Assembly (NCBI GenBank): GCA_016218965.1 | Contig: JACRCP010000399.1 | Location: 4,710-68,709, forward strand | DNA from: Deltaproteobacteria bacterium | GTDB taxonomy: Bacteria > Myxococcota > SpSt-1050 > JACRCP01 | Direction of reading: 5' to 3' | Length of the DNA stretch: 64,000 nucleotides | Shown: positions 42,709 through 47,918 of the stretch, piece after piece | How positions within the stretch are numbered: position 1 is the first letter of the stretch | How the letters are laid out: each line of letters begins with the position of its first letter | Translations under genes and position numbers: made by a program | The notes under the pieces: generated by a model | Databases searched by the model: none | Seen by the model: only the letters and a program-made list of their open reading frames with translations | What the model was told of the DNA's origin: nothing

Positions 42709-43152
42709 ATGAAGTTCCGCCTTGAGCGAATCCGTCACATCGAACACCTCCGTGCCGAGGTGTCGCGGCGCTCGCTCGCGCACGCGGCGGCCGACGAGAG
42801 CGCGGCCCGCGCGGCGGCAGGCGAGTCGCGGAACGCGTTTGTCGTAGCTGGCGCCGAGCGCGAGGCGGCCATACGGCCCGGCGGGCCGGTCACGGACCTG
42901 GCGCTTTTCGAAAGGACCCTGTTGGCCAACCGCGTTGACAGAGCACGCGACACCCTAATGGCCGGGCTTTCCAGCCACGCCGCAGCCGAAAAGAAACTTG
43001 ACGGCGCCCGCGTCGAGTATTCGGCAAAACGCAGGCGAGAGGAAGGCTTCGACCGCCTCCGCGAACGGTTCGTCCTTCAAAAAAAAAGAGACGCCGAAAA
43101 GGCCGAGGAAGGGGACACAGATGATCTCTTCAGTTCAACGCGTCGCGGTTGA
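42709..43152 (+). CDS. FliJ/SctO-family type III export stalk protein
   Basis: Length 147 aa. All-helical coiled coil with FliJ/YscO-like charge pattern. It is first in the T3SS-ordered operon. Confidence 0.55.
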   Translation: MKFRLERIRHIEHLRAEVSRRSLAHAAADESAARAAAGESRNAFVVAGAEREAAIRPGGPVTDLALFERTLLANRVDRARDTLMAGLSSHAAAEKKLDGARVEYSAKRRREEGFDRLRERFVLQKKRDAEKAEEGDTDDLFSSTRRG

Positions 43153-43651
43153 GAAGATGGCGGGCGCCGGCGCCCCCTGCGGGCCGGGGCCGGCCACGGC
43201 GTTCGGATTGCTTCTCGGCAGGCACCGCCGGGATCTTGAACCGCCGACGGAACTGGATCCTTTGCGGAAGGTGCCGTCCGCATCCGGTGGAGGGTTCCGG
43301 CCCGAATCGCTCGCGGCCGCCAATGGTGGGATACCGGTCGTGCCCCACGCAGTCGACGTGAAAAACTCGATCGAGTGCTCTTCTCCCATGCCGGTAGCGG
43401 CCGCCGTCGAGGTGCTGGCCGTTGAACGCGCGATGGACGCGGTGCGCTCTTTCGGGCCGGTCCAGTGCATGAGGCTCGACGTGGGCGGCGGCACTGTCAC
43501 GGTGCGGGCCGGCGCATGCGGGAGCGGCTTGTCGGTCGAGGTGACAACCGATTCGCGGGTCAGCCCCGAGACGCGGCGCGCAATAGTTGCCGCGGTCCGG
43601 CGCCGGGCGCCCGGCGCCGCCGTGACCGAGCGAAGAAGGGGCGGCAGATGA
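43121..43651 (+). CDS. FliK/SctP-like protein (hook/needle-length control C-terminal T3S4-like domain)
   Basis: C-terminal MRLDVGGGTVTVRAGACGSGLSVEVTTDSRVSPETRRAIVAAV resembles Flg_hook/T3S4 domains. The start is uncertain, with a 32-nt overlap if ATG 43121 is used (alternative ATG at 43157). Confidence 0.4.
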   Translation: MISSVQRVAVEKMAGAGAPCGPGPATAFGLLLGRHRRDLEPPTELDPLRKVPSASGGGFRPESLAAANGGIPVVPHAVDVKNSIECSSPMPVAAAVEVLAVERAMDAVRSFGPVQCMRLDVGGGTVTVRAGACGSGLSVEVTTDSRVSPETRRAIVAAVRRRAPGAAVTERRRGGR

Positions 43652-44691
43652 CCCGCGACGATCTGCAAATCCACAACGCGTGGTGCGCGTTTGCCGCTTC
43701 GGAAGGGTTTGCCGGGCTTGTCGAAGCCATGTGCGCACGCCTCTCGAAAACGCTCGGGACGCCGGTCGAGCTCCGGACCGCCGTCGTCGCCGTCGTCGAG
43801 AGCGCCCGAATCGAGAAGCTCTTCGCCGCGGGGCAGTTCGCGTTCGCCATCGAGGCGGGCGCGGGCAAGCGCGCGGTCGCGGTCGCCTCACGCCTGCTCC
43901 CGGCCCGCATGCTCAAGCTGCTCTCGGGCTCGGACAAACTCTCGGTCTCGCACTCGTTCTGCCGCGCGGCGATCGAGCTTTTGCTCCTTGACGCGGCCGC
44001 GGCCATCTCGGAGACGACCGGGACGAACATCCTTGTGAGTCCCGCGCCCTCGGGCGCCGCTTTCGACGCCGACGCCTTCGTACAGCTCCGCGTGGCCGTG
44101 CGCATCGGCGAACCGGCAGGGGACCTCGCGCTCTTTGTTCCCGCGCGGCTGCCTCCCGCGGGGGACCGGTTTCCGGCGTTTCTGCGCCGGATTCGGATTC
44201 CGGCAAACGCGGGGTTGGAGATCGAACCGCTGGAGGTCGAGCGGCTCGAAGGTTCCATGCCCGGGGACGTGTTGAACCTGTCGGCGGCCGGCACGGGACC
44301 CCGGGCCGTTTTGAGGCTTGAACTCGGCCGCGAAACGGCAAGGGAGTACCGAATCGACTTGGACACGTTCCTGAACGACGGGACCATCAAGATAGACGGG
44401 GGACCGATGGAGGCGACAATGGCCGAGGTGGACACGAAATCTGCTTCAGACGCACGGATGGGCACCAATCCGGTTTCAACCGGGCGTTTCAGGCTCCCCG
44501 TGAGGCTTGAGATCCTCGCTTTTGAAATCCCGGCGGCGGATCTCGAAAAACTCGCCCCCGGGCAGGTGCTTGAGACAAAGGCCGAGCCGGGCCGCGCCGT
44601 AAAAATGTACGTGTGCGGCGAGCTTTTTGCCCAGGGGCACCTTGAACACCTGGAGGGTTTCGATGGATTCCGCATTGAGAAGATTTTCTGA
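43648..44691 (+). CDS. type III secretion cytoplasmic-ring protein SctQ/FliN family (two SpoA-like domains)
   Basis: C-terminal SpoA/FliN domain VRLEILAFEIPAADLEKLAPGQVLETKAEPGRAVKMYVCGELFAQGHLEHLEGFDGFRIEKIF. A second SpoA-like segment lies upstream. Confidence 0.7.
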   Translation: MTRDDLQIHNAWCAFAASEGFAGLVEAMCARLSKTLGTPVELRTAVVAVVESARIEKLFAAGQFAFAIEAGAGKRAVAVASRLLPARMLKLLSGSDKLSVSHSFCRAAIELLLLDAAAAISETTGTNILVSPAPSGAAFDADAFVQLRVAVRIGEPAGDLALFVPARLPPAGDRFPAFLRRIRIPANAGLEIEPLEVERLEGSMPGDVLNLSAAGTGPRAVLRLELGRETAREYRIDLDTFLNDGTIKIDGGPMEATMAEVDTKSASDARMGTNPVSTGRFRLPVRLEILAFEIPAADLEKLAPGQVLETKAEPGRAVKMYVCGELFAQGHLEHLEGFDGFRIEKIF

Positions 44692-46031: not shown

Positions 46032-46787
46032 ATGGGCGCCGGGGCCATCCTCATCGGCATGCTCTACTGCGGCGCGCGGTTTTTGCCGCTTGCGGTGCTC
46101 ACGCCGCTCTTCGGCGGAAAGAACGTCCCCGCGCCGGTGCGCGTGGGGCTTGCGTGCGCGCTCGGGCTGTGCGCGCACGGCCGTCCAATCGAGGAGGCGG
46201 CCGCATCGTGGAGCATCGGGGCCATCGCCTCGGAGCTTGTCACAGGGCTCCTCGCGGCCCTCCCCGTGATCTTCGTCTTAAAGGGGCTGGAAGTCGCCGG
46301 CCACTGCCTGGACCAGGTCTGCGGCACGAACTCGGTCGAGATCCTCTTCCCGTCCGAGGACGCCCGGGCCTCGCCCACGGCGCAGCTCTGCGGGCTCGCG
46401 TTTGCGCTTATCCTGTTTGACGCCGGAGTCCACACCGCCCTCGTTTCCGCCGTCGCGCAAAGTTTCGCCGCGGCGCCCCCCGGGACGGCGCCGGTGATGG
46501 GCGCCCGGGGGTTGAACGTGCTCCTTTCGACGTGCGGGGCCGCCATCGGCGCGGGCGTCGCCTTTGGCCTTCCGTTTTTGGTCCTCTCGGTAGGCGTTGA
46601 CGCGGGCCTCAACTTTGCCGGACGGCTGACCGCCGGCTTTTCGCTCGCCCCTCACGCGATGCACGTCAAGAACGCGCTTGCGCTCGCCCTGATGGTCGTG
46701 CTCGCAGACAGGATCTGGGGCGCGGCCGCGCCGTGGGCGCCCCGCGTGATCGCCGTCGTGAACTCGCTCCTTTCGCCGGGGGTCTGA
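46032..46787 (+). CDS. fliR: FliR/SctT family type III export apparatus protein
   Basis: Length 251 aa, polytopic membrane protein. Position between fliQ and flhB. Confidence 0.8.
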   Translation: MGAGAILIGMLYCGARFLPLAVLTPLFGGKNVPAPVRVGLACALGLCAHGRPIEEAAASWSIGAIASELVTGLLAALPVIFVLKGLEVAGHCLDQVCGTNSVEILFPSEDARASPTAQLCGLAFALILFDAGVHTALVSAVAQSFAAAPPGTAPVMGARGLNVLLSTCGAAIGAGVAFGLPFLVLSVGVDAGLNFAGRLTAGFSLAPHAMHVKNALALALMVVLADRIWGAAAPWAPRVIAVVNSLLSPGV

Positions 46788-46793
46788 GCCGCC

Positions 46794-47918
46794 GTGTCCG
46801 AGACCGCCGACAGGACCGAGAAACCCACCCCGAAGCGCTTGCGGGACGCCCAAAAGAAGGGCGACGTCGCGCGGAGCCAGGCTCTTTCAGCCGCGGCGGC
46901 CGCGGCGTGCGCTTTCGCGGTCTGCGCCGGATCGGTTGCGTCGTTTCGCGGGAAGTTCGCGGGGGCGCTCGACGCCGTCTTCCGCCAGGACCGGGGTGTC
47001 GACCCGATCGGGGCCGCGGGCGCGATCATCGACGTTTTTGGCGCCGACCTCGCGCTGTTCGTCGCCGCCCCGGCCGCGGCCGCCGTCGCCGCCATCCTGC
47101 TTCAGATCGGTTTCGTGTTTGCGCCGGAGCGCTTGACGCCGGACACGGAGCGGTTCAACCCCGGGCGGTTTTTCTCGCGTGTCTTCGGGGGCGAGAACGT
47201 CTCGTCAACCCTAATCGCGTTTGCGGGAAACGTCGCCGTCTCGGCCGCCGCGCTCTGGATATTGTGCACTGCTGCAATCGCCTGCGCGGCAGTCTTTCGT
47301 TCGCGCACTGCGCCGCTCGACGCCGGGCTTGTGTTCCTTCGCCCCGCCGCCTGGAAGGTCCTCTGCGCGGCGGCGGCGTTCGGCTTTCTCGACTTTGCGT
47401 GGCGCAAATACGGACACCACAAAAACCTCATGATGACGCGCGAGGAGGTGCGGCAGGAGTACAAGGAGACCGAAGGCGATCCCCTCATCAAGTCCCGCCG
47501 CCGCAGGCTCCACCGCCAGCTTGCCTTGGCGGCGCTCAAACAGGGCGTACGGACGGCGAAGGTCCTCCTCGTCAACCCGACGCACCTGGCGGTCGCCCTG
47601 CGCTACGAGGGAGGCGACGAGGCGCCGGTGGTCGCGTACAAGGGCGAGGACGGGGTGGCCCGCGAGATGCGCCGGGAGGCCGAGGCCGCAGGCGTGCCGA
47701 TCGTGCGCGACGTCCCGCTTGCGCGGTCGATCTACTTTTCGGTCGAGGTCGAGGAGGAGATCCCGCCCGAGCTCTACCAGGCCGTTGCCGACATCCTAAA
47801 TGCCGCCGCCCGTGCGGCGATGCACGGCGAGTCAACGACATCAGAAGGGCGGCCCTCTGGCGCCGGCGCCACGTCGACCTTGAATCCGAACTCGGGTCCA
47901 CGCAACGCAACCGGTTGA
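46794..47918 (+). CDS. flhB: FlhB/SctU family type III export switch protein
   Basis: N-terminal EKPTPKRLRDAQKKGDVARS. NPTH autocleavage motif (VNPTHLAVALRY). GTG start. Confidence 0.85.
   Translation: MSETADRTEKPTPKRLRDAQKKGDVARSQALSAAAAAACAFAVCAGSVASFRGKFAGALDAVFRQDRGVDPIGAAGAIIDVFGADLALFVAAPAAAAVAAILLQIGFVFAPERLTPDTERFNPGRFFSRVFGGENVSSTLIAFAGNVAVSAAALWILCTAAIACAAVFRSRTAPLDAGLVFLRPAAWKVLCAAAAFGFLDFAWRKYGHHKNLMMTREEVRQEYKETEGDPLIKSRRRRLHRQLALAALKQGVRTAKVLLVNPTHLAVALRYEGGDEAPVVAYKGEDGVAREMRREAEAAGVPIVRDVPLARSIYFSVEVEEEIPPELYQAVADILNAAARAAMHGESTTSEGRPSGAGATSTLNPNSGPRNATG

Follow-up and report, generated by a model that had tools for sequence, protein, structure and literature searches.

A Myxococcus-Type Type III Secretion Gate Operon Without Adjoining Ring, ATPase or Needle Genes

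Introduction

Can the export gate of a T3SS (type III secretion system) be encoded as a unit of its own, and if so, which partners would it work with? The question is raised by a stretch of 64,000 nucleotides from contig JACRCP010000399.1 of a metagenome-assembled genome (MAG), referred to below as the window, in which eight genes, all pointing in one direction and overlapping or at most 6 nt apart, fill positions 42709-47918 of the plus strand. They read SctO-like, SctP-like, SctQ, FliO-like, SctR, SctS, SctT and SctU (g1, g2, g3, g4 and the four gate genes); the block starts at the sctO-like gene and stops at sctU, with no sctV, sctN, sctJ or sctI. An initial annotation had described a partial export-apparatus operon with these ends and this gene order, and the gene calls bore out the order and matched both coordinates exactly, from the start of g1 at 42709 to the stop of SctU at 47918. 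We conclude that the region is a functional, self-contained transcription unit and that, although divergent, it is of a kind known before. The explanation we favor, and think probable, is that it is one locus of a split, needle-less non-flagellar T3SS of the Myxo type, with SctV, the rings and the ATPase encoded elsewhere.

The "Myxo" group of non-flagellar T3SSs defined by Abby and Rocha in 2012 lacks secretin and needle and is nevertheless conserved, and its loci hold a gate that includes SctV together with the ATPase, SctJ and the inner rod (PMC3459982). Myxococcus xanthus has two T3SS loci, the shorter of which, T3SS(2), has no role in killing (PMC12403147), and its needle-less T3SS* acts in prey lysis (PMC10433427). 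FliO homologues were described in 2025 in the two non-flagellar T3SSs of M. xanthus, as well as in further non-flagellar systems (PMC12403147).

The Export Gate and Its Phylogenetic Placement

All four membrane subunits of the gate exceed their Pfam gathering cut-offs, and SctU is an exact match to a protein of the MAG (MBI5529629.1; 74.8-kb contig, locus tags HY897_). When the NCBIfam models that separate injectisome from flagellar families are applied, SctR passes the injectisome equivalog (TIGR01102, 232.3 bits for a cut-off of 208.6) and fails the flagellar FliP model (TIGR01103, 188.9 for 217.45). The remaining subunits stay below the equivalog cut-offs and can only be said to lean: SctT (81.3 bits for SctT, 62.9 for FliR) and SctU (270.4 for SctU, 244.8 for FlhB) lean toward injectisomes, as does SctQ, and SctS leans toward the flagellum (74.9 bits for FliQ, 61.9 for SctS). 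The autocleavage motif of SctU is well kept, its N, P and T being invariant in 8 of 8 clade sequences and its H replaced by R in a single one (P0007).

Gene order had been taken as a sign that the cluster is not flagellar, and this part of the earlier argument does not stand: the O-to-U order is real, and it equally reproduces the flagellar order fliJ-K-(L)-M-N-O-P-Q-R-flhB. The assignment is carried instead by phylogeny and by SctR. SctR, S, T and U were taken from annotated references and from about 90 metagenomic loci, which were labelled flagellar or injectisome by their neighboring marker genes, and were concatenated (894 columns, trimmed to reference columns) for neighbor joining (NJ) with Kimura correction. 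The references were the Ysc, Mxi-Spa, Hrp1, Hrp2 and Rhizobium systems and the flagella of Escherichia coli, Pseudomonas and Sulfitobacter, with no M. xanthus long-locus sequence, and loci from the clade-alignment scan described below were reused as background. The window and its relatives form a clade with 100% support, and this clade is sister to short loci of the Myxococcus type (L100, L111 and L048), a node supported at 95% with 44 taxa and at 99.5% with 46 taxa and 200 bootstraps. The clade lies outside the flagellar clade in both trees, and also outside the classical injectisome clade. Identity over the four concatenated proteins follows the same pattern, at 33–37% to the Myxo short loci, 22–30% to Ysc, Mxi-Spa, Hrp and Rhizobium, and 26–27% to flagella. 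On these sequence comparisons, the cluster belongs to a lineage that is the deep sister of T3SS(2), the "short" locus of Myxococcus, and its earlier description as non-flagellar and of Myxococcus type holds.

Conservation of the Block in Divergent Relatives

Relatives of the block were recovered at several distances. The closest contigs (L001 and L002; SctU 84% identical) have the whole neighborhood in common with the window. In L096 (SctU 44%) the order is a tRNA-synthetase gene, ORFs (open reading frames) of 147 and 135 aa, SctQ, R, S, T, U and an unrelated gene; in L099 (SctU 45%) it is an unrelated gene, a weakly matching FliJ, a 67-aa ORF, SctQ, a 103-aa ORF, R, S, T, U and a squalene-hopene cyclase gene. 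The contig of L003 (SctU 56%) is truncated on the upstream side and shows T and U followed by unrelated genes. The block lies near or beside the same tRNA-synthetase gene in the window, L001 and L096, and an O-to-U block without adjoining sctN, sctV or sctJ is found in at least four divergent lineages. Two wider scans added nothing nearer: among the matches listed, SctU found only alphaproteobacterial flagellar loci in genome contigs, at 27–34% identity, and the clade alignment found nothing closer than 40% in metagenome contigs.

The ratio of nonsynonymous to synonymous substitution rates (dN/dS), calculated against L001, is 0.03–0.17 for R, S, T and U and 0.20–0.46 for O, P, Q and the FliO-like gene, with housekeeping neighbors at 0.06–0.15. 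Because it is under purifying selection, recurs in several lineages and retains a conserved sigma-54-type promoter, the block is a functional unit with fixed ends and not a relic.

SctQ and a Candidate Internal Product

The presence of two SpoA domains in g3, noted initially from the sequence, is well founded. When an alignment of SctQ from four lineages was compared by HHalign with YscQ, Spa33, HrcQ and two other SctQ proteins, the match had a probability of 97.9 and an E-value of 3.8e-13. It extends over residues 75-346 and so takes in SpoA1 as well as SpoA2, with "PGDVL" in SpoA1 aligned to "GDVLL" of YscQ. The single sequence passes Pfam FliMN_C (30.4 bits; cut-off 23.8), matches TIGR02551 SpaO_YscQ over residues 131-334 (33.8 bits, below the equivalog cut-off of 100.8) and scores 12.8 bits for FliN; profile matches of its C-terminus in the PDB are YscQ-C, FliN and HrcQ chains. 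An in-frame ATG preceded by GGAGG at 4–8 nt lies just before SpoA2, at the equivalent place in 4 of 4 lineages, and aligns with the region of YscQ that holds the internal start (Met218). The arrangement suggests that an internal SctQ-C product is made, as it is in injectisomes.

Promoter and Upstream Elements

A sigma-54-type motif stands at -29 to -31 in four of the four lineages compared (the window, L001, L096 and L099), within diverged surroundings, and in L096 it is the full consensus TGGCACTGTAATTGC. The pattern occurs twice in the 64 kb, where 0.28 matches would be expected, and no sigma-70-like site was found in 42400-48300. Shine-Dalgarno-like motifs precede each gene from g2 to SctT, and overlaps of stop and start codons link these same genes; g1 has no such motif, in keeping with a very short leader. 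When the upstream regions of the four orthologous operons were aligned, two further conserved blocks stood out from diverged surroundings. The first, near-palindromic in relatives, is a candidate enhancer-binding-protein site, and the second, in which CCA(N)TGAAA is kept in all four, is possibly a site for IHF or for an activator. Together these features point to an activator-dependent operon driven by sigma-54, with a very short leader.

The second sigma-54-type motif of the window, TGGCACCGGGGTTGC, has the full consensus and lies at 59790-59804 (+), exactly 30 nt 5' of an ORF (59820-61196; 458 aa) that has no significant Pfam family. Its geometry is that of the T3SS-operon promoter, and the two could share a regulator.

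The SctO-like, SctP-like and FliO-like Genes

In the hidden Markov model (HMM) checks that had been proposed for the family calls, R, S, T, U and Q pass, and the FliJ, FliK and FliO calls miss the curated single-sequence cut-offs. The latter three are supported indirectly instead, by orthologue-consistent matches, a fold match and synteny. Since g1, g2 and g4 do not reach the formal thresholds of their families, we keep the suffix "-like" for them, and the O, P and FliO roles that they are given here are putative. Homologue searches returned only two to four relatives for each (for g1 with phmmer against the full library).

The g1 protein scores 22.1 bits (E 1.9e-4) against Pfam FliJ, with a cut-off of 28.4, and 17 bits against YscO-like, with a cut-off of 27. 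Its match to TIGR02473 FliJ runs end to end, residues 2-141 on positions 1-135 of a model of 141, at 25.7 bits for a cut-off of 50.45. Among 18 small proteins of mixed origin, seven of them g1 orthologues, FliJ was matched more often than any other family (5 proteins), and YscO-like was matched by 4. In the complete locus L112, the gene at the place of g1 is a YscO-like/FliJ gene confirmed by Pfam. In g2, a disordered N-terminal part precedes a putative T3S4-like C-terminal domain at residues ~90-176 (nt 43388-43648); none of four orthologues matched any Pfam or NCBIfam model, Flg_hook/T3S4 included, and HHalign comparisons with YscP, Spa32, HrpP and FliK were not significant. No meaningful match emerged when PDB sequences were searched with profiles of g1 and g2.

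The case for g4 is built from several partial matches: 19.8 bits for Pfam FliO (cut-off 22), 22.9 bits for TIGR03500 (cut-off 55.25), and a FliO match in four of the same 18 proteins, a set that contained three g4 orthologues along with their positional equivalent from a Myxococcaceae short locus. In the g4 set FliO ranks first among the families matched, and the same-position ORFs of L111 and L112 carry weak precomputed PF04347 matches. The AlphaFold model has helices at 3-36 and 41-65 (N-terminal, transmembrane) and four beta strands at 72-110. The initial annotation had singled out a FliO-like gene in a cluster of non-flagellar order as noteworthy. Given that FliO homologues had already been reported from non-flagellar T3SSs in 2025 (PMC12403147), and that they occur in L100, L111 and L112 as well, the gene is not new here, for FliO in non-flagellar T3SSs of Myxococcota is already known.

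What the Window and Its Relatives Do Not Carry

The initial annotation had listed the ATPase, FlhA/SctV, secretin, needle, rod, hook and flagellin genes as missing, and with SctJ/FliF added, none was found by Pfam in about 50 ORFs with high GC at third codon positions (GC3) across the window. ORFs below 100 aa, the size of a needle subunit, and ORFs that failed the coding filter were scanned within 38-50 kb only, where a phmmer marker screen likewise found no further T3SS or flagellar genes. The remaining scanned ORFs are metabolic, cell-wall, glycosyl-transferase, TPR and protease genes. No match to FHIPEP (SctV/FlhA) was obtained in the scanned ORFs of the window or in any clade contig; the same is true of the secretin SctC, the needle SctF and translocon proteins, and SctN, SctL and SctJ are likewise absent from the window and the clade contigs. 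FliL, FliF, FliG, FliM and rod, hook and filament genes gave no Pfam or phmmer match in the window.

Neighborhood and Feature Coordinates

The window has a GC content of about 65%, and GC by codon position was used to tell real frames from shadow ORFs. On its 5' side the block is flanked by a class II tRNA synthetase gene of the Asp/Asn/Lys type, two small or unknown genes and a formylglycine-generating enzyme (FGE)-sulfatase gene, the last of which had been predicted and is confirmed by Pfam at 164.6 bits. The gene downstream had been described as a DUF4339/TonB-C protein, which agrees with what was found: a sub-threshold GYF_2 (formerly DUF4339) and an above-threshold AgmX/PglI "myxo_SS_tail" domain, which is TonB-C-like. 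The same myxo_SS_tail domain occurs in the gliding-motility proteins GltG and GltJ. Beyond this gene lie unrelated genes on the opposite strand. It was considered as a part of the system and rejected, since it is not kept beside the block in L001, L096 or L099. A 748-aa ORF listed mechanically at 46733-48979 (+) crosses sctU out of frame and is an artefact; the real gene starts at 47990. The host is plausibly a member of the Myxococcota, as had been supposed: the myxo_SS_tail domain is encoded next door, and NCBI labels the MAG "Deltaproteobacteria bacterium".

Two other stretches of the window, 11000-16500 and 20100-24700, have lower GC (~59–62%) and lower GC3, and horizontal acquisition is possible for both. 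A 770-aa protein in which a GT4 glycosyltransferase is fused to a radical-SAM/SPASM domain is encoded in one of them, and a 1139-aa TPR protein in the other.

Table 1. Positions of the operon genes, predicted regulatory elements and downstream gene in the window, with dN/dS against L001.
Feature	Position	Strand	Details	dN/dS
Conserved upstream block, candidate enhancer-binding-protein site	42610..42621	+	CGGCGGAATCGG; near-palindromic GGCGGAATCCGCC in relatives	
Second conserved upstream block, possible IHF or activator site	42653..42663	+	CCACTGAAATC	
Sigma-54-type -24/-12 promoter (predicted)	42679..42693	+	TGGCACGGCGCTTGA; starts 30 nt 5' of g1 ATG	
g1, SctO/FliJ-like stalk protein	42709..43152	+	147 aa; NCBI: hypothetical	0.20
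g2, SctP/FliK-like protein	43121..43651	+	176 aa; NCBI HY897_25125, MBI5529623.1	
g3, SctQ, cytoplasmic pod/C-ring protein	43648..44691	+	347 aa; SpoA1 ~nt 44200-44433, SpoA2 nt 44470-44688	0.30
Candidate SctQ-C internal translation product	44419..44691	+	M258 to end, 90 aa, SpoA2 only	
g4, FliO-like membrane protein	44663..45028	+	121 aa; NCBI HY897_25135	0.31
SctR (FliP family)	45021..45764	+	247 aa; signal-peptide-like N-terminal segment; Pfam FliP 217.3 bits (cut-off 26.9)	0.08
SctS (FliQ family)	45768..46031	+	87 aa; Pfam Bac_export_3 78.5 bits (cut-off 25)	0.03
SctT (FliR family)	46032..46787	+	251 aa; Pfam Bac_export_1 97.4 bits (cut-off 27.8)	0.11
SctU (FlhB family), export switch protein	46794..47918	+	374 aa; Pfam Bac_export_2 299.7 bits (cut-off 24.4)	0.17
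NPTH autocleavage motif of SctU	47574..47585	+	residues 261-264	
Downstream gene	47990-48979	+	329 aa; sub-threshold GYF_2, Lys/Glu-rich linker, above-threshold AgmX/PglI myxo_SS_tail	

Comparison with Known Systems

The Myxo short locus (M. xanthus T3SS(2), MXAN_5643-5654; here L100, L111 and L048) has the same core order as the window, Q-(FliO-like)-R-S-T-U; neither has a secretin or needle gene in or beside the locus, and the hosts are alike insofar as that of the window is plausibly a myxococcote. In L100 and L111 the layout reads I-like, J, x, Q, FliO-like, R, S, T, U, V. The short locus thus has an sctI-like gene and sctJ upstream and sctV directly after sctU, all three of which the window block lacks, whereas the block starts with SctO-like and SctP-like genes that have no detectable counterparts in the short locus L100, and has a sigma-54-type promoter of its own. 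L100 itself (Myxococcaceae GCA_016458225.1, 21 kb) shows no ATPase gene in the 6 kb upstream of its T3SS genes or in the 10 kb downstream of them, yet the literature lists the ATPase as a Myxo core gene, so that in L100 it may be encoded at a distance.

The long locus of M. xanthus, T3SS* (MXAN_2434-2464), is also needle-less, secretin-less and non-flagellar, belongs to the Myxococcota and has a FliO homologue. Unlike the window, it gathers SctD, J, I, Q, R, S, T, U, V, N and L together with chaperones in one locus, and its function in predation cannot be transferred to the window cluster.

A complete locus from an uncultured organism, L112 (the context of P0090), reads I-like, J, x, L, N, O, P, Q, FliO, R, S, T, U, V, D-like, with its YscO/FliJ, Flg_hook and FliO genes confirmed by Pfam. 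It contains the identical sub-order O-P-Q-FliO-R-S-T-U, and the window block corresponds to this central O-to-U segment, without the I, J, L and N that L112 has upstream or the V and FHA/SctD-like genes that it has downstream. The SctU of L112 falls in the group nearest to the window clade in a tree of SctU only; it is not grouped with the clade in the concatenated tree. The gene in the SctQ position of L112 (6323-7846; 507 aa) joins FHA/Yop-YscD cytoplasmic domains to SpoA, an unusual fusion of SctD with SctQ, and two more FHA/YscD_cpl genes follow its sctV.

In the Ysc system of Yersinia pCD1 (yscN-O-P-Q-R-S-T-U), the order O-P-Q-R-S-T-U is the same and a T3S4 protein (a putative one in the window) stands between O and Q; SctQ has SpoA1, SpoA2 and an internal start (a candidate one in the window), and SctU has NPTH. 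The differences are many: Ysc has no FliO, yscN lies directly upstream and lcrD, yscC, yscD, yscJ and yscF are nearby, identity over R, S, T and U is 29%, and YscP, at 455 aa, contains a long ruler where the SctP-like protein of the window has 176 aa in all. Flagellar operons (fliJ-K-L-M-N-O-P-Q-R(-flhB) of E. coli and Pseudomonas) are collinear with the window, with FliO where the window has its FliO-like gene; they differ in having separate FliM and FliN genes and adjacent FliL, FliF, FliG, FliH and FliI, and they form a separate clade.

The metagenomic loci also include L042, L076, L004, L016, L019, L024 and L033, environmental T3SS loci that form a well-supported clade of their own next to the classical injectisomes. 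Several have a FliO homologue, and L042 and L076 also have a secretin; in L004 the T3SS genes are split by a histidine kinase/response regulator pair, and flhB is divergent.

Discussion

What does a gate operon of this kind do, and with which partners? SctO/FliJ proteins exert their function by contact with SctV and with the ATPase, whereas the docking of SctQ to SctN and SctD goes by way of SctL/SctK. Because the SctO-like and SctQ genes have been retained under selection, and the known partners of such proteins are SctN, SctV, SctL and SctD, it is reasonable to suppose that those partners are encoded elsewhere in the genome. Dispersal of T3SS genes has precedents in the short locus L100, whose 21 kb contain no ATPase gene, and in an orphan sctU of a Myxococcota MAG. 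The latter, in L110 (8907-9950), is a full-length gene that has an S8-peptidase/TonB_C gene on one side and priA on the other and lies close to dnaA and dnaN; the 14.6 kb contain no other T3SS gene.

If roles are taken from established T3SS biology, the system can be envisioned as follows. The sigma-54-type promoter, presumably with an enhancer-binding protein on the conserved upstream block, would drive expression of eight translationally coupled genes. The FliO-like protein would chaperone assembly of the helical SctR5-S4-T1 gate in the inner membrane, which SctU would join, and SctQ, probably with internally initiated SctQ-C, would form the cytoplasmic sorting platform. SctO would be the stalk that couples the ATPase to the SctV ring, and the small, ruler-less SctP-like protein would offer its T3S4 domain to the NPTH-cleaved C-terminal domain of SctU and so bring about the switch in substrate class. 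SctV, and normally also the SctJ/SctD rings and SctN/SctL, are indispensable to such a machine and would come from one or more other loci of the same genome, so that the system would be split and not reduced.

Several observations weigh against this account. No sctV, sctN, sctL, sctJ, sctD or sctI was found in any clade contig (up to 25 kb) or in the 64-kb window. The O, P and FliO assignments lie below curated HMM cut-offs when the sequences are taken singly, and HHalign comparisons of g1, g2 and g4 with their positional counterparts in L112 and L100 were not significant. The FliO-like ORF is absent in L096 (4389-6171), where SctQ ends 5 nt before SctR, so that the gene may be dispensable, or some members of the clade may have lost it. 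In three of the four lineages the promoter has TTGA, not TTGC, as its -12 element. Lastly, the trees are distance-based (NJ), and support at deeper nodes is low (12%).

Of the other explanations, the one that survives best is that the block is an alternative gate cassette, a second set of gate, pod and switch genes under sigma-54 control that plugs into the SctV/SctJ/SctN scaffold of another, complete T3SS of the same cell and changes its substrate specificity. M. xanthus does have two T3SS loci, and the block consists of precisely the parts related to specificity (SctU, SctP and SctQ) behind an independent promoter of the activator type. Nevertheless, there is no evidence for a second T3SS in the source genome, mixing of gate subunits between paralogous T3SSs is to our knowledge not established, and in the tree the members of the clade hold together as a co-evolved set, apart from other Myxo systems; we regard the cassette as unlikely, if somewhat less so than what follows.

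A more radical possibility, akin to the reduced export gate that the initial annotation had suggested and likewise a statement about the whole genome, is that SctV/FlhA, the ATPase and the SctJ/SctD rings have truly been lost, leaving a minimal autonomous gate that serves, for example, as a protein channel in the inner membrane. We know of no T3SS that exports without the SctV/FlhA ring, and retention of SctO and SctQ under purifying selection makes little sense if their partners are gone. It is true that the O-to-U block never adjoins V, N or J in the recovered lineages, that its boundaries are conserved and its promoter its own, and that Myxo-type systems are known for progressive loss of parts (PMC3459982), but the absence is documented for only 10–64 kb around the block, and the loss of these components is in our judgment improbable.

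Far less credible is that the block is a piece of a normal flagellar regulon (fliJ-K-N-O-P-Q-R-flhB) whose other genes lie elsewhere in the genome. Such a fragment would have this gene order and a FliO-like gene, and the higher FliQ score of SctS and the matches to FliJ and FliO models agree with it; against these stand the strongly supported union of the clade with non-flagellar Myxo short loci, a SctR that passes the injectisome equivalog and fails the flagellar one, a single SctQ with two SpoA domains and a candidate internal start in the injectisome manner in place of a FliM and FliN pair, and a window in which no FliL, FliM, FliG, rod or hook gene was found. Least tenable of all is the idea that a T3SS or flagellar locus once stood here and is now in decay, for even though Myxococcus loci were termed degenerate in the earlier literature, the accessory genes evolve fast and FliO is missing from L096, the eight reading frames are intact at dN/dS values of 0.03–0.46, the catalytic NPTH is kept, and block and promoter are conserved across lineages whose SctU proteins are only 44–45% identical.

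A locus of a split Myxo-type T3SS thus remains our preferred explanation. Systems of this type are regarded as intermediates between flagellum and injectisome; the short-locus system, the closest relative of the cluster, has no known function, and another Myxo-type T3SS acts in predation. Should the partners prove truly absent, which we think unlikely, the indispensability of SctV would be challenged, and the operon would represent the first T3SS-derived machine to work without FHIPEP. The cluster defines a sister lineage of the short locus in which gate, pod, stalk and switch genes form an independent operon, probably regulated by sigma-54. If the partner genes do lie elsewhere, it would be a further case of T3SS gene dispersal, and the predicted promoter and conserved activator site would offer a handle on the regulation of such systems.

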